From the NCBI GenBank assembly GCA_041743105.1, contig JBGTNI010000050.1, positions 16,529 to 80,528 of the forward strand: a stretch of DNA of 64,000 nucleotides, in the 5' to 3' direction. Numbering within the stretch: the first letter of the stretch is position 1; each line of letters begins with the position of its first letter. The translations under genes and the position numbers were made by a program. Positions 14,701 through 52,850 of the stretch are shown here, in pieces. The stretch is from Mycobacteriales bacterium. Lineage in GTDB: Bacteria > Actinomycetota > Actinomycetes > Mycobacteriales > QHCE01. The notes under the pieces were generated by a model. That model saw only the letters and a list, made by a program, of their open reading frames with translations, made no database searches and had not been told where the DNA came from.

Positions 14701-15681
14701 CGCCGGGATCTCTAGCCGGGCCACGGTGGATGGCAGCGGCCGCAACGATGAGGACGTGCCGGTGAGGAAAATCCTCCCGCCGGCGCCGGCGGCGAGTCCT
14801 ACCTCGTCGAGTCCGCCCTTAGCGAAGGAGCGAGTACCGGTATGGTCCACCCGGCGGACCCGGGCGGCGTCTCCTGCGTGGTCCATAAACCACACGCCTC
14901 CCGCTGCGTCGGGTCGCAGCGCGAATGGCGTCCCACTCGAACGCGCCAGCGGCTGCATCGAGCCGTCGGATTGCACGCGGATCACTCTGGAACCACTGGC
15001 CGCTACGATTCCCTTGGCGTCTGGGACCGCGGAGGTGACCTGTCCGGCCACCTTCACCGGTGTGGAGAGAGCCGCGGTGGCGGTGTCCACCCGTGCCAGC
15101 CTCGTCGCGCCGAGATCCTCGTCGCCAGCCTGGGTCAGGATGGCCTGTTCACCGACGCCGCAGCCGGGGTTGTAGTACGCCAAGCTGGACTGAATAGGTA
15201 GCTTGAGCACTGCCCCGCTGCGCAGATCTACGATGGCGGTGAAACCGCCCCGCAAGAACAACTCAGCCTTATTGGTGAAGGTGCGCGGCGCATACACCAC
15301 GACCAGCTTGTTGCCGGAACCAGTCACGCAGGCGTTGCCGATCCACAGGTCAGTCTCCAACCCCGGCTCCGACAGCGTCGCCGCGGTACGCCACGTGTAG
15401 CCGTTTTTTGCCTCGGCCACCAGCACATGCAAACCGTCCGCGTCACCCGTCGTCGTCCACGTCAGATCCTGGGATTGACGCCACTCCCGAGGGAGTACGG
15501 CATCACGCTGTCCCGCTTCAACGGTGGCCGGATCCCTGCTGTCAGCCGCCGGAACACTGGGGGTAGACGATGCCTGAGGTCCTGGGAGTAGCTGGTCTTT
15601 GGCTACCGACGCGCCAGCTGGTGGTGATATCAACGCTATCGACACGGCACATACCGTGAATATTTCCCGAACTCGAAACAT
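11734..15681 (-). CDS. giant secreted multidomain protein B: N-domain, SLT-like lytic transglycosylase, golvesin-like module, C-terminal SGNH/GDSL hydrolase
   Basis: ATG at 15681 preceded by GGGGGAG. Signal peptide MFRVREIFTVCAVSIALISPPAGASVA. Motifs TAQES (about 14170-14193), GYGVTQVT and WAYNSG (about 13798-13812). SGNH blocks GDSFAAGEG (about 12667-12705), ACSGA, GGND and YHPNEIG. Length 1315 aa. Confidence 0.85.
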   Translation of the reverse strand: MFRVREIFTVCAVSIALISPPAGASVAKDQLLPGPQASSTPSVPAADSRDPATVEAGQRDAVLPREWRQSQDLTWTTTGDADGLHVLVAEAKNGYTWRTAATLSEPGLETDLWIGNACVTGSGNKLVVVYAPRTFTNKAELFLRGGFTAIVDLRSGAVLKLPIQSSLAYYNPGCGVGEQAILTQAGDEDLGATRLARVDTATAALSTPVKVAGQVTSAVPDAKGIVAASGSRVIRVQSDGSMQPLARSSGTPFALRPDAAGGVWFMDHAGDAARVRRVDHTGTRSFAKGGLDEVGLAAGAGGRIFLTGTSSSLRPLPSTVARLEIPADSSVSTTGQIAVLRTESESVTSARMLSTSPNNAQPVRISTRVVSTGKDLAFTVHPSQRQSEQSQTGRELSPNLDTRASAAPTAAGDPGDPVDTDRSCSVPRGDVRTQVHQPTPHQVEWAVDMLAQGRMDLNRPANWKGSGLPAYAPLEMFPLVPLAGGGRIPAQVLLGITAQESNMWQASRHTVEGLAGNPLIGNYYGIPFRVSGKESEWDVDWKDADCGYGVTQVTDGMRLAGREKPDEKPRPPLHQRAIAVDYAANLAAGAQILAEKWNEQAAYGMKVHEGDPSKLENWFMAVWAYNSGFHPRQKAGEPWGLGWMNNPANAPYPINRRPFLHGRPSDASHPEDWSYPEKVMGWAAHSIGKTTGKNGAGFQPAWWRNTDQQLSVKPPNTLFCVKAANDCDQTQKFVPDDPSVLPTKPGQKPEPASHCGHINPATGKYDLKCWWHDVAWWKDDCEVNCGNEKIRFDAGVHPNPPDVPVHNLNCQTEDLPSNVLIVDNVSADVPAVASAPCPRRSDGSFRLDFERDAKTGDFLSKVDFHQIAGGFGGHFWFSHTRDGEIGQRLRVNGEWRLNRELHGWARVMVHMPNHGAHTQQARYTVHTADGAKHRTLLQRTEENRWVPLGAFRFSGVPAVDLTSITGGKPDGTEDIAFDAIAFQPLPGKPQHQIVTIGDSFAAGEGASPASGGKYYPESDRMGLTNYQNACHRSYAAWSRKARLPGSQHTVGYRTDIWDPTIDYHLLACSGAQTHNLLPSPRPGEEPIRNAFGRTAEGKFREPPQLDKGFLDADTTLVPMTIGGNDAEFTDVLTDCFVRFSCQEHHDLLVRERILNRVVPSIRTALEQVAKAAPNAKIVVMGYVKIFTASCDQTSQPDQTAFFHPESSEAEWMGRMAVFLNDQIAALIKDLQASPKIDVHFADPIASFEGKSVCGDPEAVNAGVLKITQGEGEKGGFPGFNPVISQQSYHPNEIGTSILGDVLSARLPQIGYGRSG

Positions 15682-15746
15682 GATCTCCCCCACTCCTAGC
15701 CATTCTGGTAGCGGACACTTATTCCTTGGTTGTCGTTAGGCCCGGC

Positions 15747-15886
15747 TCAGTAGTCCCATTGCGTAGTGTTCGGTAGGAGGTAAGGGTCCTCACATTGCTG
15801 CGCCCGTGCGTCATTAGCATGACTGGAGTCGGGCTATTTGCAAACATTTACCACTGTTGAAACCACCGGAGATACCGTTGCTGTTA
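15747..15886 (-). pseudogene. C-terminal fragment of a ricin-type lectin gene (second copy)
   Basis: About nine-tenths identical by eye at nucleotide level to 10998-11135. It ends ..QQCEDPYLLPNTTQWDY*. Confidence 0.5.
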
Positions 15887-15903
15887 CAGGCTCTGAGATC
15901 GGA

Positions 15904-16482
15904 TTAGAACCAGAGTTGATAGTTTTGTGGAACATGGCTGCACGGGTAGGTGCGGAGTCCGTGTTCGCTATCGTCTAGACACAGCCCGGTGTGTTGGTTT
16001 CTGAGTTCAATGTAAGAACCGAACGTGCGGATATACCAACTTTGGTAGGGAAGCGCGTTACAGTCCCACATGCGGAGTCCGTGTTCGCTATCGTCCAGGC
16101 AACTGTAGCCAATAAAACTCCGGTAGATCTTCAGTTCGACGGTGCCATCGCGCCACTTGTGGACGAACCACGTTTCAGTGCTGTTGTTGCCGCAAGGATC
16201 GTGCTTGCCAGGAAGTTCTGTGTAGGGCCTACTGCCTGGTTCGTAGCCAGCCAGACACCCCCCGGTGTGCCTATTCCGGAAGGCCTGAGCGTTGGAAGTG
16301 CTAGCGTCAATGGACGGGCCGTTGTCGGATACCGTCGTCAATTTACGACTGTCAGGTGATGCATGTGCCGACTCGATTGGGAGAACCAAGGCGGAAATTC
16401 CTACCATACAGGTGATGATAAGCCTTGAGAAGCGCCGAGTGAGCGGACGCCAGACCACGTGAATTTTTCTGCGAGCCAACAT
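15904..16482 (-). CDS. small secreted beta-trefoil (ricin-like) lectin-like protein
   Basis: ATG at 16482 preceded by GGAGGAG. Signal peptide ..ISALVLPIESAHA. Three repeats with (R)N.HTG.CLDDSEHGLR..C....Q.W, ending QNYQLWF*. Confidence 0.75.
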   Translation of the reverse strand: MLARRKIHVVWRPLTRRFSRLIITCMVGISALVLPIESAHASPDSRKLTTVSDNGPSIDASTSNAQAFRNRHTGGCLAGYEPGSRPYTELPGKHDPCGNNSTETWFVHKWRDGTVELKIYRSFIGYSCLDDSEHGLRMWDCNALPYQSWYIRTFGSYIELRNQHTGLCLDDSEHGLRTYPCSHVPQNYQLWF

Positions 16483-16554
16483 TATTCTCCTCCATCTCAA
16501 GAATCGATCAACACGCAAAATTAGACGAAACCAAGATGCTCCCATCTGAAATCA

Positions 16555-16752
16555 TTTCAGATTGAGCCGTTTCCTTTCACATAACATAGTGCCAACGAAT
16601 GGCCGCTAATACTTCTCCTAGAAGACTCGTTATTGCCTCTACCGGATGAGAGTCTTTTGGCGCGGAATATCTATCGGAAGAAAGAGATGAAGATCCGCCA
16701 TGAGGCAGATACTCGTGTGTGTGCCATGACGTATGGTCTGGGCATGAGAGCC
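16555..16752. repeat. direct repeat copy 2 (resident promoter and 5' region of the sensor kinase)
   Basis: Partner of 5749-5935, offset by 10806 bp. Confidence 0.75.
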
Positions 16753-18003
16753 TTGGTCAACCGGACAGCTAAGTCGTCGCGCCGTCATCCGAGGTGGATT
16801 GACGGCGCGGTCGCCGCCGTTTTGTTGGTTGCCGGTGTGACGGAAACCTATGGCTTTGTTGAACTGGGCGCTCAGGTCGCCCAAGCTAGAGGGTTACAAG
16901 TCGAGACGGCGTCGTTTTTTACCATCACCGCCCTCACTATGGCCATGGTGGCGCCGTTGGTGTGGCGGCGTCGAGCACCACTGACCGTGCTGGGGTTGAT
17001 CAGCGCGGTTCAACTGGTTTCCACGGTGGTATTCAAGCTGCCGATCACCAGCGCCACCATTGTGACACTGCTCGTTGCCGTCTACGGCGCGAGCGTTTAC
17101 GGAGCGCCGCGGTGGCGCACTCCACTACGGATAGTGGCGTTGATGACCCTGATGGCAGGAGGCGCCTACGAAATCATCTCCAGCGAGAGGCTAGAGGACC
17201 TCGGAATAACAACGGCCCGAATATTCTTTACGGTTTCCTCGGTGATGATCGACCTGTTTATCTTCGGGTTAGCGTGGGTGCTGGGCGATGTTGTGCGAAT
17301 CCGCCGGGTCCGCGAGGCGGAGCTGGAAACGCGCACCGCGCAACTGGAGATCGAGCGGGAGGAGAACGCCCGTCGGGCGGTGTTGGATGAACGGGTGCGC
17401 ATCGCAAGGGAACTTCACGACGTGATCGCCCACCACGTCAGCGTCATGGGAATCCAGGCTGGGGCAGCGCGCCGGATTATGCATGCTCAGCCAGATCGAG
17501 CAGCACAGGCACTTACCGGCGTCGAAGCCGCCAGCCGTCAGGCAGTGGCCGAGCTGCACCGGATGCTCGGTTTCTTGCGTCAGCACAACGACGTCGACAC
17601 CCTAGGTCCCTTGCCTGGTCTTGGGCTGTTGCAGGACTTGGTCGACCAGATGACCCACGCCAACCTCACTGTCGAAGTCGATATTGACGGCGAGCCAAGA
17701 GCCGTACCCACCAGCGTCGACCTCTCCGCCTACCGCATCGTCCAAGAAGCGCTGACCAACACCCTCAAACATGCCAACGCGACCGCCGCGGTGGTCACCC
17801 TGTGCTACCGAAGCGACGCCGTCGAAGTCGGTGTCGTCGACGATGGCCGCGGCGCCGGATCCAACGAACGCAGACAGGGCAATGGACTCGTCGGTATGCG
17901 CGAGCGCGTAGCCCTACACAACGGGCGATTCCAGGCGGGACCGCGACCAGAAGGCGGATTCGGCGTACATGCCACCTTCCCCCTACAGAAAGGCTCCTCA
18001 TGA
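16726..18003 (+). CDS. sensor histidine kinase (HisKA_3 / NarL-partner type)
   Basis: Multi-TM N-terminus, H-box RIARELHDVIAHHVSVM, and an HATPase region with N and G boxes (QEALTNTLKHA, DDGRGAG, GNGLVGMRER). The start is uncertain (ATG at 16726 or 16744; the ORF opens at 16633). Confidence 0.85.
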   Translation: MTYGLGMRALVNRTAKSSRRHPRWIDGAVAAVLLVAGVTETYGFVELGAQVAQARGLQVETASFFTITALTMAMVAPLVWRRRAPLTVLGLISAVQLVSTVVFKLPITSATIVTLLVAVYGASVYGAPRWRTPLRIVALMTLMAGGAYEIISSERLEDLGITTARIFFTVSSVMIDLFIFGLAWVLGDVVRIRRVREAELETRTAQLEIEREENARRAVLDERVRIARELHDVIAHHVSVMGIQAGAARRIMHAQPDRAAQALTGVEAASRQAVAELHRMLGFLRQHNDVDTLGPLPGLGLLQDLVDQMTHANLTVEVDIDGEPRAVPTSVDLSAYRIVQEALTNTLKHANATAAVVTLCYRSDAVEVGVVDDGRGAGSNERRQGNGLVGMRERVALHNGRFQAGPRPEGGFGVHATFPLQKGSS

Positions 18004-18662
18004 CTATCCAAATTCTGCTCGCCGACGACCAGGCCATGATCCGAACGGGCTTCCGCCTGATTCTGGAAGCAGAAGACGATCTGGAAGTGGTAGGCGAAGT
18101 CGAAGACGGTAAAGCGGCCATAGTCGCGGCACAGCGACTACAACCCGATGTGGTGCTGATGGACATTCAGATGCCCACCCTCGATGGGCTGGAGGCCACC
18201 CGCCTCATCGTGGCACCCAATGGTCAGACACACACCAAAGTGGTGATCTTGACGACGTTCGAGCGCGACGACTACATTTTCCAGGCCCTTCAAGCCGGCG
18301 CCAGCGGATTCCTACTCAAAAACGCCCCACCCGAAGACCTCATCGCCGCGGTGCGCATAGTGGCCGCCGGCAATGCCCTACTCGCCCCGTCGGTCACCCG
18401 TCGCATCATCGCCGACTACGCCCGCCGTCCACCCACCGCCGTCAACTCCGCCGCCATCAGTCAACTCACCGAACGTGAACTCGAAGTGCTGCGGCTACTG
18501 GCCACCGGCAAAAGCAACACCGAACTAGCCGCGGAACTCTATGTCGGAGAGGGCACCGTCAAAACCCATGTTTCCCATCTGCTCACCAAACTCGGTTTGC
18601 GCGATCGGGTCCAAGCGGTGGTCTTCGCCTACGAAACTGGCACAGTTCAACCGGGAGCTTAA
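18000..18662 (+). CDS. response regulator, NarL/LuxR family
   Basis: ATGA overlap with the kinase stop. REC domain (LLADDQAMIR..VVLMDIQMP) plus a LuxR HTH (LTERELEVLRLLATGKSNTELAAELYVGEGTVKTHVSHLLTKLG). Confidence 0.9.
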   Translation: MTIQILLADDQAMIRTGFRLILEAEDDLEVVGEVEDGKAAIVAAQRLQPDVVLMDIQMPTLDGLEATRLIVAPNGQTHTKVVILTTFERDDYIFQALQAGASGFLLKNAPPEDLIAAVRIVAAGNALLAPSVTRRIIADYARRPPTAVNSAAISQLTERELEVLRLLATGKSNTELAAELYVGEGTVKTHVSHLLTKLGLRDRVQAVVFAYETGTVQPGA

Positions 18663-47618: not shown

Positions 47619-48725
47619 GTGGACATCCATGACGTCATCACCAGGCTGGCTCGTCCGCAGGTTCTGGCCCTGACGCCCTATAGCTCAGCCCGAAAGGAAG
47701 GCGAGCAGAACGAGGCGTGGGCGCATCACGACGCCAACGAGATGCTGTACCCGCCCTACCCGGACACCTCGGCGCAGGAGGGGCTCAATCGCTATCCCGA
47801 ACCGCAGCCGTCCCACCTGCTCGACATCTTCGCTCAGTACTTTGACGTGCCCCGAGAACAGCTGTTGCTTTCTCGCGGCGCGGACGAGGCGATCGACCTT
47901 CTCACGCGAGTCTTCTGCCGGGAAGGTGTCGACGCGGTGCTTATTCAACCGCCAACCTTTGCCATGTATGAGCACTCTGCGCATGTACAAGGCGCCGCCA
48001 TTCACGAAGTCCCGCTCCGTCCCGACAGTTTCCAGCTGGATGTACCCCGGATTCTTGACGCTTGTCGGAAGGACTCCAATATCAAGCTCGTTTTCATTTG
48101 CTCCCCGAACAACCCCACCGGGAACCTGATGCGACGAGAAGACGTGCTGGCGCTGAGCCGGCATCTGGCCGGTCAGGCAATGATTGTGGTCGACGAGACA
48201 TACGTGGCTTATTCCGGCCAACCGTCGCTTAGCGCCGAAATCGAGAAACATCCAAACGTGGTCGTGCTCCGTACAGTCTCGAAGGAGAACTCGCTTGCCG
48301 GAGAGCGATGCGGGGTCATGATCGCGCATCCAGAAATCATCAGTCTCACCGGCCGCATCCACGCGCCTTATCCACTAACCGCCTCCGCTATCCGCGCTGT
48401 TACAGAGGCCATGTCCGTCGAAGGTGTCGACTATGCCGGGCGGCTCCGCGAGCAGATCTTGCGCGATCGGGACGCGCTCGAACAGGCTTTAGCTACCTCA
48501 CCGGCTGTGCAGCGTATTTACCCTAGCGATGCCAACTTCCTGCTGCTGCAGACAGCTAACCCCAAGCTTCTAGTGCGGGTCATGGAGGAGAACCATATTA
48601 AAATCCGAGATCGCAGCGCGGTGGTGCCAGGGTGCGTGCGAATCTCTGTGGGCCGGCCAGAGCAGAACGAGCGACTGTTAGCTGTCTTTGCCGAATACGC
48701 CCGGCAGGCTACGCCAGCGCAATAA
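47619..48725 (+). CDS. hisC: histidinol-phosphate aminotransferase
   Basis: 368 aa. NPTGN, DETY and SKE.SLAGER (PLP lysine region), plus IRISVG. Confidence 0.85.
   Translation: MDIHDVITRLARPQVLALTPYSSARKEGEQNEAWAHHDANEMLYPPYPDTSAQEGLNRYPEPQPSHLLDIFAQYFDVPREQLLLSRGADEAIDLLTRVFCREGVDAVLIQPPTFAMYEHSAHVQGAAIHEVPLRPDSFQLDVPRILDACRKDSNIKLVFICSPNNPTGNLMRREDVLALSRHLAGQAMIVVDETYVAYSGQPSLSAEIEKHPNVVVLRTVSKENSLAGERCGVMIAHPEIISLTGRIHAPYPLTASAIRAVTEAMSVEGVDYAGRLREQILRDRDALEQALATSPAVQRIYPSDANFLLLQTANPKLLVRVMEENHIKIRDRSAVVPGCVRISVGRPEQNERLLAVFAEYARQATPAQ
48623..48720. repeat. 98-bp direct repeat copy 1 (authentic 3' end of hisC)
   Basis: 94 of 98 nt identical to 52753-52850 in the same orientation, by my hand alignment. 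Confidence 0.85.
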
Positions 48726-48798: not shown

Positions 48799-49104
48799 AT
48801 GTTGACGGTAAATTTGACGGACGCCCGAGCTCGACTTTCAGACCTGGCCGATGAGGTGACCGGTACCCATGAGCATGTGACAATCACCCGTAACGGGGTG
48901 CCGGCGATGGTGCTGTTATCGGCCGACGAGTATGAAGGTCTCGTGGAGACTTTGGAGATTATGCGTGATCCGCAGGCTGTGGCGGATCTTCATCAAGCTC
49001 AAGCCGAGTATGAACGTGGCGAGGCGTATACGCTTGATGATCTTAATCGAATGATGGCGCAACGTCGTGCTCGCGAAGACTACGACCGGAAACACGCCGC
49101 GTGA
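48799..49104 (+). CDS. Phd/YefM family antitoxin
   Basis: 101 aa. VNLTDARARLSDLADEV..HVTITRNGVPAMVLLSADEYEGLVETLEI. Confidence 0.8.
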   Translation: MLTVNLTDARARLSDLADEVTGTHEHVTITRNGVPAMVLLSADEYEGLVETLEIMRDPQAVADLHQAQAEYERGEAYTLDDLNRMMAQRRAREDYDRKHAA

Positions 49105-49400
49105 ACCCACAGCACCAGCCGTTGTGGGAGGTGTGCATTCTGCCTACGGCGCTTCGTAAGCTTCAAATCGGTCCCCCAACTGGTCTGCCCTCGGCGGCGG
49201 CATTCGCTGCCTTGGAGCTCATTAATGGACCACTGAGCCGGAATCCTCACCAGGTTGGGAAGTCACTGCATGGGGGGCTCGCCGGCAAACGCGCCGCTAG
49301 GCGCGGTGATTACCATGTCATCTACCTCATTGACAACGACAAACACCTTGTCACCGTCTTTGACGTTGGGCACCGCGGTCACGTCTACCGCCGGAACTAG
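49101..49400 (+). CDS. RelE/ParE family toxin
   Basis: 99 aa. 4-nt overlap with the antitoxin. ..RRGDYHVIYLIDNDKHLVTVFDVGHRGHVYR. Confidence 0.75.
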   Translation: MNPQHQPLWEVCILPTALRKLQIGPPTGLPSAAAFAALELINGPLSRNPHQVGKSLHGGLAGKRAARRGDYHVIYLIDNDKHLVTVFDVGHRGHVYRRN

Positions 49401-49500
49401 ATTTCTACACCAGCAACGGGTTGGCATGGCCCATTTGGTTGATCCATCGCTTCGATAATCATGTCGTCAACATCGCCAAACGACAGCCGGATGTAGTCTT
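49398..49500 (-). pseudogene. C-terminal end of a class I/II aminotransferase gene, split by the transposon
   Basis: Reads (E)DYIRLSFGDVDDMIIEAMDQ..* on the minus strand. The continuation ..LLYEAKVITIPGNGFG.. lies at 52623-52745, on the other side of the element and in a different frame. Confidence 0.45.
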
Positions 49501-49544
49501 GGGATCCCCGTAGTACTCGCCGAAAATCGGGCGGATATGGCTGA
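49501..49544. repeat. terminal inverted repeat, left
   Basis: 42 of 44 nt match the reverse complement of 52579-52622. Confidence 0.85.
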
Positions 49545-49608
49545 CCGGGAGTTTCGCTAGCCAGGTTGCGGCTGAGCGTCGGTCTCGGCGGCCGCCACCT
49601 CGCCGTGC

Positions 49609-49744
49609 ACGACCGCTCGGCGACCTTGAGCTTGCCGCTGACCTTCTCCTCGAACACCTTAACGCAGATCGGGTCGAGGTCGTCGTGCTTGCGTTGGGTC
49701 TCCTGCTTGCTCGAGCTGACCCGCACGAGCCCGACGAGCGCCAT
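49609..49744 (-). pseudogene. tnpR: serine recombinase / resolvase N-terminal fragment
   Basis: MALVGLVRVSSSKQETQRKHDDLDPICVKVFEEKVSGKLKVAER matches the resolvase catalytic N-terminus (the VRVS-S-Q pattern), but similarity ends after about 45 aa. Confidence 0.6.
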
Positions 49745-50134
49745 CCCGGCCTCCCAATCGTCCGGAAAACGTGTTCGAAAACCGGTTGCAGCTCTACCTG
49801 CAAACGAACGGATTTCCGAACGCGGCGCTTTGGCGAAACGCCAGGTCGCGTCGCGCCGATGCTCGTTCGTGTTCGTGTTCGGCGAACGATCGTTTGTTGA
49901 ACAGAAGAGCTGTCGGTGCCGACGGTCACGATCCTGCGTCACCGGCCGCGCCGGGCGCCCTGTCTTCGGCGACTACCGACAAATCCTGTTCTGATTCTCC
50001 CGGCATCCCTAATTCAGCGAAACCGCCGCCAACGTCTCGGGGAACGGATGTCCTACCGGGCGTTCCGGGCCGAGCTTCTGCTCGCCGCGGGCGTCACGCA
50101 CTTGACGTTGACACTGTGACAAGGTCTTCACTGG

Positions 50135-50830
50135 GTGCAGGAGGTGGTTCCCGTCAACTCGACACACAGGAATTCACAGGACACGCGCCTGCTCGACGCG
50201 TTGGGCGCCGGAAACTCGTCGACGCGGCTCCAGGCGGCTCTGGCGGTTGGCACGCACTCCGACCTCGGCCTTGTCGGTGCGCTGGTGGCACGGTGCGCGA
50301 TCGAGCCGGACTTCTTCGTGCGCGACATGCTCACCTGGGCGTTGACCCGCTTCCCGTCGGAGATCACGGTGCCCAGACTCCGTGCGGAGCTCCGTTCCGA
50401 GCGCGCTCAGGCCCGAAGCCAGGCGTTGCATACGCTGTCCAAGATCGGGGACGGAAATGCGTGGCCCGCGATCACGCGGTCGTTGCTGCACGACGCCGAC
50501 GACGAGGTCGCGCGAAGCGCATGGCGTGCTGCCGTCGTCCTCGTGCCCGCTGGGGAACTGAAAGGGCTGGCCGCGGAACTGGCCGCACAACTCGGTCGCG
50601 GCGACCGGAATGTGCAACTGAGTCTCAGCCGAGCACTCGTCGCACTCGGAGACGTGATCGAGCTAGCCCTGCAGACGGGACTGGCGAGTGACGACCCGAC
50701 GGTGCGTGCGCATGCCCGCGCCACGGAGCGGCTCCTACGCGACCCGGATGCCGATTTCGACCCAGCCGTCGAGGAGGCGAAACGGATCGTCGCGCTCGGC
50801 CCGCAACGGGTCGAGGGAACAGCGTGCTGA
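50135..50830 (+). CDS. HEAT-repeat protein
   Basis: 231 aa. Repeated helical units with ..D..VR..A..AL.. periodicity. GTG start. Overlaps the downstream MerR gene by 7 nt. Confidence 0.6.
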   Translation: MQEVVPVNSTHRNSQDTRLLDALGAGNSSTRLQAALAVGTHSDLGLVGALVARCAIEPDFFVRDMLTWALTRFPSEITVPRLRAELRSERAQARSQALHTLSKIGDGNAWPAITRSLLHDADDEVARSAWRAAVVLVPAGELKGLAAELAAQLGRGDRNVQLSLSRALVALGDVIELALQTGLASDDPTVRAHARATERLLRDPDADFDPAVEEAKRIVALGPQRVEGTAC

Positions 50831-51852
50831 TCGGCGAGGTGGCACGCCGCTCGGGGGTGAGTACCCGGATGCTCAGGCACTACGACTCCCTCGGGCTGGT
50901 GCGACCAACAGGCCGCACCGTGGGTGGCTACCGCGAGTACTCCGCCGAGGACATTCGCCGGATCTTCCACGTGGAAAGTCTGCGGTCCCTGGGATTGTCG
51001 CTGCGACAGATCGGACGCGCCCTGGAGGATCCCGCCTTCGCGCCGTCCGCAATGGTCGGCGACCTCATCCGACGGACCGAAGACCGACTGAAGCGGGAGC
51101 AGGAGCTACTCGAGCGACTCCGTACGGTCGATGCCTCGGCGCCCTTCGCCTGGCAGGGCGTCCTGCGCATCGTCGAGCTCCTGCACGGGCTCAACTCGCC
51201 CAGTGCTGCGCGCCGACAGCAGACCGTCCTGGCCCCGGCCGAGGACGTGCCGGTTCCCACCGAGCTGCTGGCTGGGGCGATCCTCGCCGAATCCGATCCG
51301 AACGTTGCCGGCGCCCTGCGGTGGGCCCTCGCCCGGGCGGGCGGTGACGGTGTGGCGAGCGTGGCGTCCGGCGTGTATTCGGAGAACGTCGACATCCGGC
51401 GACGCGCGGTCCTGGCGATCGCCGAGATGTCCGGTGACGAGGCGAACGCGGTGCTCGCGGACGCACTCGGGGACCCGGACACGACGGTGCGCAGACATGC
51501 TGCTCTGGCATTGGGCACGCGTGGCGCGACCGCAGCCATGCCGACACTCGTCGGCATGGTGGTCGAGGGCACGAACGACGTCGAGGCGGCCGAGGTCCTG
51601 GGAACATTGTCACTGGACCCCGAGTGCGCGGACCGGATCATGAGTGCACTGGTCGACGAGCTCGCCGCACACACTGCGGACTCCGCGGTGCGGATACGCC
51701 TGACCCAGGCACTCGCCGAGATGCCGGCGACCATCGCGCTGAGCGTCCTGCAACAATTGGTCCACGACGATGATCGGGCTGTCGCCCTCATCGCCTCGGC
51801 CCTCGTGGGGGTGCTCGAAGAGAGTGGTCCAACGGTTGAGCCCGAGGCGTGA
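50824..51852 (+). CDS. MerR-family transcriptional regulator with C-terminal HEAT repeats
   Basis: 342 aa. MerR HTH IGEVARRSGVSTRMLRHYDSLGLVRP....GGYREYSAEDIRRI. C-terminal repeats DPNVAGALRWAL, ENVDIRRRAVLAI and DPDTTVRRHAALAL. Confidence 0.8.
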   Translation: MLIGEVARRSGVSTRMLRHYDSLGLVRPTGRTVGGYREYSAEDIRRIFHVESLRSLGLSLRQIGRALEDPAFAPSAMVGDLIRRTEDRLKREQELLERLRTVDASAPFAWQGVLRIVELLHGLNSPSAARRQQTVLAPAEDVPVPTELLAGAILAESDPNVAGALRWALARAGGDGVASVASGVYSENVDIRRRAVLAIAEMSGDEANAVLADALGDPDTTVRRHAALALGTRGATAAMPTLVGMVVEGTNDVEAAEVLGTLSLDPECADRIMSALVDELAAHTADSAVRIRLTQALAEMPATIALSVLQQLVHDDDRAVALIASALVGVLEESGPTVEPEA

Positions 51853-52028
51853 GCTGACCCGCCAGATCGAGCGGCAGCGCGAGTACGTGCGCGACACCGC
51901 CGCCTACGTCGACACCGAGGCCGTCTGGTCGATCGCGGCGACGATCGTGCTGCCGCCGGTGCTCGCGACCGCGATGGTGCGATCACTGTGACCAGGCCCG
52001 CCACGTCGGATCGAGCAACCGTGGGTGT

Positions 52029-52560
52029 TCAGAAGAGGGTGTCGCGCACGCGAAGCGGCCGGTAGCCGGTGGGGCCCGAGCTGGGCGAGTTCGCCTTCGA
52101 TGTCGACGTCGATGGAGCCGAAGAAGTTGATGTTCTCGCTGTGCGCTCGGGAAATGTGACCCAGGACCTCGTCGTCGAGGCACCGGCCGCGGCCCGCATC
52201 GAGCCCACGGCCAGGCCGTAGTACTCCGTCGTCCAGGCGGCCACGGCGTTGGTGACCAGAGTCAGGCACCACGCCTGTTCGGTCTGCTGTTCCAAGTGCC
52301 GCGCCCGGACGGTGCCCTCGTGGGCGTAGAGCAGGTCGCGTCTCAGCGCGTGCAGCGACTCGCCCTTGTTGAGCTGGCGGGAGATCCTGCGCCGGTAGGC
52401 GGGGTCGGCCAGGTAGCGGGCGGCGTCGATAGTGCGCCGTAACGCCCCGTACTCCTTGAGCGCGGCCGCGAGCGCGTTCTGCCGCCCCGAGGCGGACAGC
52501 TTGCCGACGAGCAGGGCCACCACCACTGGCGGTGCCGAGGACACCTTGTCCGGTACGAAT
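52029..52560 (-). pseudogene. tnpA: Tn3-family transposase C-terminal fragment with frameshifts
   Basis: ..RRISRQLNKGESLHALRRDLLYAHEGTV..EQQTEQAWCLTLVTNAVAAWTTEYY.. lies in one frame and ..HISRAHSENINFFGSIDVD.. in another. Roughly the N-terminal four-fifths of a full-length transposase is absent. Confidence 0.7.
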
Positions 52561-52578
52561 CCCAGCTCAGAAGCCTAC

Positions 52579-52622
52579 TCAGCCATATCCGCCCGATTTT
52601 CGGCGAGTACGACGGGGACCCC
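52579..52622. repeat. terminal inverted repeat, right
   Basis: Reverse complement is GGGGTCCCCGTCGTACTCGCCGAAAATCGGGCGGATATGGCTGA. Confidence 0.85.
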
Positions 52623-52745
52623 GTCTTCCTCAGTAGGCCGAACCCATTGCCCGGGATTGTGATCACCTTGGCTTCGTAGAGCAGGCGCAGTGTTGAGATA
52701 CAGCTTCTCCGAGCTCTGCACGACGGGCTGTTGTCCTTCGGCGGT
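52623..52745 (-). pseudogene. upstream part of the split aminotransferase remnant
   Basis: Reads ..STLRLLYEAKVITIPGNGFG.. on the minus strand and abuts the duplicated hisC 3' end. Confidence 0.4.
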
Positions 52746-52752
52746 GCCAGGG

Positions 52753-52850
52753 TGCGTGCGAATCTCTGTGGGCCGGCCAGAGCAGAACGAGCGACTGCTA
52801 GCTGTCTTTGCCGAATACGCCCGGCAGGTTGCTCCAGCGCCGGCAGGGTT
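52753..52850. repeat. 98-bp direct repeat copy 2 (orphan copy of the hisC 3' end)
   Basis: See 48623-48720. The four mismatches cluster near the 3' end. Confidence 0.85.

Follow-up and report, generated by a model that had tools for sequence, protein, structure and literature searches.

A probable defective Tn3-family transposon with an intact HEAT-repeat gene pair in an actinobacterial aminotransferase gene remnant

Introduction

Within the 64-kb stretch of actinobacterial DNA analyzed here (the window), a 3,122-bp segment (49501 to 52622) lies between two long inverted repeats that are themselves flanked by the same pentanucleotide. The locus raises the question of whether a single transposon inserted at this place and, if so, whether it can still move. 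Tn3-family transposons have terminal inverted repeats (IRs) of 38 to 40 bp or longer, a DDE transposase (TnpA) of approximately 1,000 residues, and a resolvase plus its res site (PMC7157771), and actinobacterial examples have GGGG tips with 5-bp direct repeats (PMC6305408, Table 3). The family includes two kinds of non-autonomous derivatives, TIMEs (Tn3-derived inverted-repeat miniature elements) and MICs (minimal insertion cassettes), the latter known from Xanthomonas as cassettes without transposition genes (PMC7157771). An earlier note had described the segment as a Tn3-family element with intact ends and dead transposition genes. We consider it highly probable that it is a defective Tn3-family transposon, predicted to be of the replicative type that moves through a cointegrate, that inserted into the remnant of an aminotransferase gene and then decayed in place.

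Results

Direct reading of the sequence and a repeat finder both placed the IRs at 49501 to 49544 (+ strand, the tnpR side) and 52579 to 52622 (− strand, the tnpA side). They are 44 nt long, complementary at 42 of 44 positions (95%) as previously described, and separated by 3,034 nt. On the same window the repeat finder also returns many inverted repeats of 14 to 27 nt. A search for the 44-mer allowing up to 3 mismatches recovered the two arms and nothing else in the 64 kb, with no match in 100 shuffles, and a looser search of the 64 kb (up to 12 mismatches in 40) revealed no further copies. The sequence GTCTT abuts both IR tips (49496 to 49500 and 52623 to 52627); the chance probability of such matching 5-nt flanks is approximately 1/1024.

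Exact matches to the 25-nt core of the IR lie beside Tn3 transposase genes at 64 genome loci, spread over many actinobacterial genera. The IR is also approximately 90% identical to the ends of L003, an intact transposon with an intact TnpA between them. The proposed Tn3-family affiliation of the ends is thus borne out, and by these sequence matches they are assigned to a Tn3-family lineage widespread in Actinomycetota, with the 44-nt end sequence GGGGTCsCCGTAGTACTCGCCGAAAATCGGGCGGATATGGCTGA. It would be extremely improbable that the IRs and flanks match by chance, or form a structural palindrome unrelated to transposition, since the only point in its favor is that short GC-rich repeats are common in general, against the empty shuffles and the exact core beside Tn3 transposase genes in 64 genomes.

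Length (at least ~38 bp), a GGGG start, and relatedness to known ends are all found here, apart from the left tip, which reads GGGA at a position where G occurs in 60 of 67 family ends. The right arm has the GGGG tip; its position 12, an A in 61 of the 67, is C. Each IR therefore has one private substitution at a conserved position, and the ends, described before as intact, are both present but altered. The inner part of the IR is GGCGGATATGGCTGA and does not have the ...CGCTAAG ending of transposons such as Tn6516 and Tn6517 (PMC6305408, Table 3). A literature search with the IR core sequence gave 0 matches.

The possibility that GTCTT belongs to the repeat itself in other copies, which would speak against a target duplication, was checked against the related ends. 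Outside the GGGG the sequence differs at all 64, which indicates that GTCTT is a target-site duplication and not part of the repeat. Relatives have 5-bp duplications of their own, TTTTC for L003 and CATGC for the L026/L027 ends.

Removal of the element together with one GTCTT restores a reading frame, ...IPGNGFG..TEEDYIRLSFGDVDDMIIEAMDQ, that aligns across the junction to residues 339 to 378 of the aspartate aminotransferase 1GD9 (E = 2.9e-5), with one manual frameshift correction approximately 10 to 20 nt right of the junction. At the nucleotide level the reconstructed empty site reads ...CGACAGCCGGATGTAGTCTTCCTCAGTAGGCCGAACC.... This alignment identifies the predicted target as the remnant, a C-terminal part, of an aminotransferase gene whose frame is restored by the removal of the element. 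The 5-bp duplication is thus seen in the scar, in the duplications of relatives, and in the restored aminotransferase C terminus. No uninterrupted target site turned up in the relatives examined, so the case for a target duplication draws on the scar, on comparison within the family, and on the reading frame that is restored. Neither of the adjacent genes, PhD and ParE, had an exact-protein match; the nearest ParE homologues reach 72% identity at most and lie in other contexts. In JGI metagenomes no exact match to the 24-nt left flank was found. The GC content is 67.7% in the element versus 61.9% in the window.

The interior was read against the layout of the lineage, which on the − strand runs IR, tnpA, cargo, res, tnpR, IR. 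Intact relatives encode a TnpA of approximately 1,000 aa whose gene begins within the element, about 100 nt from the IR, and points inward, and such an inward tnpA adjoins the IR in L001, L003, L009, L019, L027, L048, and L070. In L003, for instance, the IR lies at 15001 and tnpA at 15145 to 18159, and the 1,004-aa product aligns over its full length with the Tn4430 transposase (E = 1e-137).

The 3′ part of tnpA is kept at 52029 to 52517 (− strand; PF01526 and tblastn), with its stop codon at 52029 to 52031. The coding block from 52517 to 52032 corresponds to TnpA residues 843 to 1004, is 67% identical to the L003 TnpA there at the amino acid level, and matches PF01526 with E = 2.8e-30 (profile positions 255 to 367 of 389). 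Compared with intact relatives, it has indels at 52194/5 (−2), 52189 (+1), and 52077 (+1), and small indels put approximately 37 codons out of frame. The earlier description of tnpA as a frameshifted C-terminal fragment of about 170 codons holds for this block, but codons ~63 to 80 are also kept, at 52514 to 52566 (− strand; 88.7% by blastn to L003 15330 to 15382 and L001 8778 to 8830). They are joined in frame to residue ~844, with the junction peptide ...PPVVVA|LLVGKL..., across a deletion of approximately 2.29 kb (junction 52514 to 52516) in which residues ~81 to 843 were lost. Between these codons and the IR lies tnpA-side subterminal sequence (GTAGGCTTCTGAGCTGGGA..., 52567 to 52578, − strand), identified by comparison with related ends, after which approximately 0.22 to 0.29 kb are missing, the tnpA start codon included.

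The orientation of tnpA had been called atypical. This does not hold, given that an inward tnpA is native in L001, L003, L009, and L027; together with the position of codons ~63 to 80 between the IR and the C-terminal block, it points to the native layout with two internal deletions. By its sequence the gene belongs by descent to the ~1,000-aa PF01526 transposases but does not encode a functional one. In annotation, the locus should be treated as a pseudogenized mobile element and its 171-aa "transposase" open reading frame (ORF) as debris. In the protein collection this ORF forms a single-member cluster from one contig. A protein search with the remnant gave only proteins of 110 to 190 aa, which brought up a conserved short form of TnpA as a candidate. 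It was rejected, as the list of hits is length-biased (full-length TnpAs that are 85 to 90% identical, those of L001, L003, L009, and L027, score equally well and were not retrieved) and the N termini of the short hits differ.

For tnpR, reported before as reduced to about 45 codons, the 5′ remnant was found (codons 1 to 44, 49744 to 49613, listed as 49613 to 49744 on the − strand; 84% identity to the intact L004 resolvase by tblastn) and includes the catalytic-serine motif VRVSSSKQ. The last ~19 codons are kept as well (AVVHGEVAAAETDAQPQPG*, with the stop), in a segment at 49545 to 49613 (− strand) that also includes subterminal sequence and whose match in L023 is the stretch from the IR to the 3′ end of the resolvase gene. 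Mapping against L023 showed that the core was lost in a 394-bp deletion with its junction at 49613/49614. The transposition genes are thus dead, as had been claimed: both tnpR and tnpA are deleted, and tnpA is frameshifted.

When aligned with the sequences that lie upstream of tnpR in L023 and L004, the window shows three conserved blocks (49767 to 49782, 49800 to 49823, and 49869 to 49902) with TGTTCG/CGAACA half-sites, the distal block forming a palindrome at 49876 to 49903. Homology to the relatives ends just past this distal block. On the basis of conservation and half-site symmetry, 49767 to 49903 is a putative res site, kept intact. As read from these alignments, the resolution module here consists of the two pieces of tnpR and the three upstream blocks matching relatives.

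These remnants also bear on whether the segment is one element at all. Two solo ends left by separate events, or the product of a rearrangement (intramolecular transposition or an inversion, for example), might bracket unrelated DNA, and the three internal breakpoints of a rearranged interior and the different subterminal sequences of the two ends would fit that reading. Different tnpA-side and tnpR-side subterminal classes are, however, normal in the lineage (L023 and L027), and the genes between the ends keep the order and orientation of the intact layout. Since a single insertion is also favored by the match between the 5-bp flanks and by the aminotransferase frame that is restored, we regard this reading as very unlikely.

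Between the tnpA stop and the res-like region lie two intact ORFs on the + strand. The first (50135 to 50830) encodes a HEAT-repeat protein of 231 aa (PF13646, E = 6e-9), and the second (50824 to 51852), whose start overlaps the stop of the first, encodes a MerR-type helix-turn-helix (HTH) fused to HEAT repeats, 342 aa in length (PF13411, E = 1e-15; PF13646, E = 4e-15). From sequence, the cargo is an intact two-gene operon of a HEAT-repeat protein and a predicted MerR-HTH/HEAT-repeat regulator. Comparison of the cargo with PADLOC and NCBIfam gave generic MerR and HEAT matches only, and gene 2 matched no NCBIfam equivalog above its cut-off. No informative homologue of the spacers at 49905 to 50076 and 51853 to 52028 was seen in any of the loci retrieved.

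A metagenome scan guided by the MerR-HEAT protein returned 46 loci, approximately 40 of them with the gene pair, in which gene 1 always lies beside gene 2. Relatives of gene 2 reach 97% nucleotide identity in soil metagenomes. None of the ~40 other cargo-pair loci has this Tn3 backbone or IR, and no parent element with the same cargo was found among them. The pair came to this locus by horizontal transfer. A protein identical to that of gene 1 occurs in Logan contig L077, which is 100% identical and ends inside the IR; by this match it is probably the same locus. The same organism is present in Logan runs SRR28170461 and SRR28170472.

Discussion

The closest intact counterparts of the element are L003, a 12.7-kb element of the Nocardia sp. 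NBC_01377 plasmid NZ_CP109568 with its own 5-bp duplication, and L001, a mer transposon of the Mycobacterium sp. SMC-4 plasmid NZ_CP079871 with ends of the same lineage. In both, as in the window, tnpA sits next to one IR and points inward, and the cargo follows its stop codon; at its 3′ end the gene is 81 to 84% identical to the window copy at the nucleotide level. Unlike the window copy, which is approximately 3 kb shorter by loss, they have a full-length TnpA (1,003 to 1,004 aa) and other cargo (mer genes; TetR/ADH/TPR genes), and L003 has a tyrosine recombinase where the window copy has a serine resolvase remnant. The tnpR side is better matched by L023 (contig JBOHGX010000386 of a Pseudonocardiaceae metagenome-assembled genome), which shares the tnpR-side end, serine resolvase (approximately 87% amino acid identity to the L004 type), res-like region, and tnpA 3′ end (85 to 91% nucleotide identity), but has an intact tnpR and different cargo between the tnpA stop and res.

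With Tn3, Tn21, and Tn501 the element has in common the GGGGTC tip, the 5-bp duplication, a transposase of the DDE_Tnp_Tn3 type, and a serine resolvase gene, tnpR, preceded by a (here putative) res of several subsites. In those transposons the tnpA 3′ end abuts an IR, whereas here the 5′ end adjoins it and the IR is 44 nt long. The 44-nt end marks a large actinobacterial Tn3 lineage of unusual order (IR, tnpA, cargo, res, tnpR, IR) in which the stretch from the tnpA stop to the distal res block is where cargo is swapped. The comparison leaves the current understanding of Tn3-family biology unchanged.

With tnpR and tnpA dead, the element is non-autonomous. Judged by its sequence, self-movement is impossible and movement would occur only with a cognate TnpA in trans; the substituted GGGA tip may make even this less likely. 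The earlier note had likened the element to TIMEs (PMC7157771; Szuplewska et al. 2014, cited there). The likeness to TIMEs and MICs lies in Tn3-type IRs around DNA without a working transposase, dependent on TnpA in trans. TIMEs are a few hundred base pairs long and gene-free; as a class they lack coding capacity and are multicopy, whereas this element has 3,122 bp, two intact genes, pseudogene debris, and one copy in the window. MICs have no transposition genes and are found in multiple copies. The window element is functionally equivalent to them in having no working tnpA or tnpR, but in structure it is a full transposon that has decayed, still carries pieces of both genes, and is seen once. 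The non-autonomous state proposed before therefore stands, and mobilization in trans is unsupported.

A cassette of the MIC kind, already deleted on arrival, mobilized in trans by a full-length TnpA, and serving as an active vehicle for the HEAT/MerR-HEAT pair, would explain why both IRs, the subterminal regions, the res-like region, and the cargo are kept; it has a precedent in the Xanthomonas MICs (PMC7157771), and many intact TnpA genes of the lineage could act on it. We nevertheless consider it unlikely. Copies at other sites with different duplications, the mark of such mobilization, were absent from the collections searched: neither the plasmid collection nor the 64 genome loci, the 46 metagenome loci, or the protein collection contained another copy with these deletion junctions. 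The identical contig breaks inside the IR and is probably this same locus, the ~40 other cargo-pair loci have neither this backbone nor this IR, and the 64-kb window has no cognate tnpA. The frameshifted debris and the private IR substitutions, one of them in the GGGG tip, also stand against it.

Decay in place is the most likely history, and we infer the order, insertion first and decay second, from the sequence. The ancestral element would have been approximately 6 kb long, with IR, inward tnpA, cargo, res, tnpR, and IR on the − strand. Tn3-type transposition would have carried it into the aminotransferase gene remnant and duplicated GTCTT, as the scar and the behavior of the family suggest. 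After insertion, the 394-bp deletion would have taken the tnpR core, and two deletions (~0.2 to 0.3 kb and ~2.3 kb) the tnpA start and residues ~81 to 843; small indels would have shifted the frame of the tnpA tail, and one substitution would have arisen in each terminal repeat. Both ends, the res-like region, and the intact two-gene cargo operon would be the survivors. The element is an ordinary genomic fossil, a decayed copy of a mobile element common in soil actinobacteria. There is a slim chance that it is more than that: its ends, subterminal regions, and res-like site could let resident full-length relatives mobilize the HEAT/MerR-HEAT cassette, and TnpA-binding ends could give local transposition immunity.

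Decayed copies are very common in the lineage, and different, independent tnpA deletions were found in other genomes (L036, L037, L049, L055, and L065). As a separate observation, the large tnpA deletion begins within 3 nt of the same nucleotide as an unrelated remnant in L126, a shared start that could mark a breakage hotspot in tnpA.

Terminal repeats and target duplication

The arms of the element, at 49501-49544 (GGGATCCCCGTAGTACTCGCCGAAAATCGGGCGGATATGGCTGA) and 52579-52622, were paired by a repeat finder as a 44-nt inverted repeat (IR) matched at 42 of 44 positions, and GTCTT abuts both tips (49496-49500 and 52623-52627). Allowing up to three mismatches, the 44-mer occurs at only two sites in the window and at none in 100 shuffles; a looser mismatch scan of the window added no further IR copies. 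These ends and flanks are as the earlier note had described them.

A plasmid collection was queried with each of the two ends and with the whole element, giving many actinobacterial matches (Rhodococcus, Nocardia, Pseudonocardia, Embleya, Mycobacterium, and Arthrobacter). Among the intact relatives the best, L003 on plasmid NZ_CP109568 of Nocardia sp. NBC_01377, has an IR at 15001-15041 that is 90% identical to that of the window, an annotated Tn3-family transposase of 1,004 aa reading inward from it (15145-18159), a second, inverted IR at 27724-27686, and TTTTC at each flank. The L003 TnpA can be aligned from end to end with the solved Tn4430 transposase (E = 1.3e-137). Across 185,579 species-representative genomes, a 25-nt IR core was found exactly in 64 loci from many Actinomycetota genera. 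The repeat starts with GGGG in 52 of the 67 ends, and the sequence outside it differs in essentially every one of these loci. Since the outer flanks vary by locus, while TTTTC in L003 and CATGC at two ends on one Streptosporangium contig (L026 and L027) are paired, GTCTT lies outside the repeat proper, in a lineage that generates 5-bp duplications. This bears out the Tn3-family ends and target duplication proposed earlier, and we hold the identification of the element as a Tn3-family insertion with high confidence. The lineage fits what has been published on the family, namely, IRs of 38 to 40 bp or longer, a DDE TnpA of ∼1,000 aa, and a resolvase plus its resolution site, res (PMC7157771). 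In actinobacterial members, the tips are GGGG and the direct repeats are 5 bp long (PMC6305408, Table 3).

At position 4, G is present in 60/67 family ends but the left arm reads A; at position 12, A is present in 61/67 but the right arm reads C. Both differences between the arms are private changes at strongly conserved IR positions. Because the GGGG tip matters for the catalytic steps of Tn3 and gamma-delta transposition, the left end of the element may be impaired.

Two other arrangements of these ends were observed. In Longimycelium tulufanense (L055, 3449-4736), two inverted IR copies 1.3 kb apart enclose only TnpA residues 1-342, with unequal 5-bp flanks (TTCCA versus CAATG); the pair is either a mini-derivative or a set of rearranged ends. 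Different Streptomyces species have an 8-nt outer flank in common (gccgtctc in L021/L038, acccagtc in L025/L069), which suggests a single insertion that is either inherited or carried by a plasmid or island common to the two species of each pair.

Insertion target

The uninterrupted target was not found through homologues of the adjacent genes or left-flank matches in JGI metagenomes. When the flanks are joined with a single GTCTT, the − strand reads ...IPGNGFG..TEEDYIRLSFGDVDDMIIEAMDQ... and aligns across the junction to the C terminus of aspartate aminotransferase (1GD9, residues 339-378; E = 2.9e-5, after one frameshift correction 10 to 20 nt right of the junction). This alignment through the junction indicates that the element lies in a truncated and already frameshifted aminotransferase remnant and that its excision would restore sensible sequence. 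The pseudogene (− strand, 49397-49500 plus 52628-52720) retains only the last ∼45 to 50 codons of a class I/II aminotransferase.

The surroundings contain a 102-nt direct repeat, 95% identical (48619-48720 and 52739-52840), which is the duplicated 3′ end of a histidinol-phosphate-aminotransferase-like gene (47619-48725). Between the copies, ∼4 kb holds a PhD/ParE toxin-antitoxin pair (48799-49400; GC content of the region, 55.8% versus 61.9% for the window), the aminotransferase remnant, and the transposon, and no integrase. The arrangement looks like the result of an earlier insertion at the 3′ terminus of the aminotransferase-like gene, in which a substitute 3′ end was supplied.

Decay of the transposition genes

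Subterminal sequences fall into two classes across the family. The right end of the window is of the tnpA-side class (GTAGGCTTCTGAGCTGGGA...), and the left end is of the tnpR-side class (CCGGGAGTTT..., as in L008 and in L023, a Pseudonocardiaceae MAG contig, JBOHGX010000386). Inward from the right tip, the IR and ∼12 to 16 nt of subterminal sequence are followed by tnpA codons ∼63-80 (52566→52514; 88.7% nucleotide identity to L003 and to L001, the mer transposon of Mycobacterium sp. SMC-4 plasmid NZ_CP079871) and by TnpA residues 843-1004 (52517→52032). Compared with intact relatives, ∼0.22 to 0.29 kb is missing together with the tnpA start, as is ∼2.29 kb of tnpA at 52514-52516, the latter deletion being an in-frame fusion of ...PPVVVA to LLVGKL.... 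Small indels at 52194/5, 52189, and 52077 put ∼37 tnpA codons out of frame, and the Pfam match covers only positions 255-367 of the 389 in the catalytic-domain profile. The frameshifted C-terminal remnant of ∼170 codons reported earlier is thus confirmed, with codons ∼63-80 kept in addition. Its orientation had been misread as atypical, given that tnpA adjoins the IR and reads inward in seven relatives (L001, L003, L009, L019, L027, L048, and L070) and that this arrangement is the rule in the lineage.

A conserved short form of TnpA, raised by the exclusively short protein matches to the remnant, was rejected. Full-length TnpAs 85 to 90% identical exist yet are absent from that search, so the list is length biased and uninformative on a short form. 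An ENA forest-soil contig (L126, 1400-1889) carries a tnpA 3′ remnant, 84% identical in nucleotides to the window, without an IR and joined to unrelated DNA beside a DUF805 gene. It starts within 3 nt of the large-deletion junction (52517), a match that is partly ascertainment, as hits were chosen to be short and to cover the whole query; the common breakpoint may be coincidental or may mark a hotspot of breakage immediately ahead of the LLVGKLSAS motif.

In L023, the order is IR, ∼20 nt, tnpR 3′ end, tnpR 5′ end, and res, relative to which the window lacks 394 bp at 49613/49614. What is left of tnpR is codons 1-44, close to the ∼45 noted earlier and still with the VRVSSSKQ serine motif, and also the last ∼19 codons and the stop. 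Putative res blocks with TGTTCG/CGAACA half-sites lie upstream of tnpR at 49767-49782, 49800-49823, and 49869-49902 and are conserved with L023 and a further relative, L004.

History of the element

In the best reading, a full-length element would have entered this site through replicative transposition of the Tn3 type, with GTCTT as its scar, and would afterwards have decayed in place. Three separate deletions, the indels, and the IR substitutions argue for this, as do the different, independent tnpA deletions in other genomes (L036, L037, L049, L055, and L065). Arrival in an already deleted form, mobilized in trans, is unlikely: no second copy with the same deletion junctions was found in the plasmid collection or the 64 genome loci, the tnpA-remnant open reading frame (ORF) is a single-member protein cluster on one 118-kb NCBI contig, and the window holds no other tnpA or resolvase, all of which point to decay in place. 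Logan contig L077 matches 49515-51228 at 100% identity and stops within the IR, and Logan contigs from the same organism stop within the 102-nt repeat; all are reassemblies of this one locus and not additional copies.

By descent, the element is a Tn3 family member. With tnpA and tnpR dead, it amounts functionally to a non-autonomous cassette; structurally it is neither a TIME, to which it was likened earlier, nor a clean MIC but a decayed transposon. Its kind is already well known; the particular cargo and the particular copy appear undescribed.

Cargo

Backbone homology extends as far as the tnpA stop codon (52029) on one side and, on the other, to directly past the distal res-like block (49903-49905), a palindrome according to the repeat finder. 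This places the cargo bay between them, and L023 has different cargo in the same bay. The ancestral order on the − strand is IR, tnpA, cargo, res, tnpR, IR, and the size before the deletions was ∼6.1 kb (3,122 + 394 + ∼0.25 kb + ∼2.29 kb). Toxin-antitoxin passengers lie next to res site I in other Tn3-family members (PMC7157771), and the bay boundaries and the L023 swap fit passenger exchange there.

The cargo comprises two intact, overlapping ORFs, a HEAT-repeat protein of 231 aa (50135-50830) and a MerR-type HTH plus HEAT-repeat protein of 342 aa (50824-51852), by domains a predicted transcription regulator and a repeat-domain partner. No NCBIfam equivalog or defense-system model fits either. 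Both genes are adjacent in ∼40 soil-metagenome loci (nucleotide identity up to 97% over 50077-51846) and are present on Nocardia farcinica and Streptomyces plasmids, forming a conserved module. None of these soil-metagenome and plasmid loci has this Tn3 backbone, and in the closest (L082, 34-3243) the pair lies between an IS transposase fragment (DDE_Tnp_1) and a truncated serine resolvase. A recombinase fragment also stands beside the pair on a Streptomyces plasmid (L005, 3619-3921), and mobile DNA of several kinds seems to carry the pair. A 73-aa ORF (51770-51991, + strand; ...YVDTEAVWSIAATIVLPPVLATAMV...) without a family match overlaps the 3′ end of the MerR-HEAT gene, fills most of the spacer that precedes the tnpA stop codon, and may be a piece of an earlier passenger gene.
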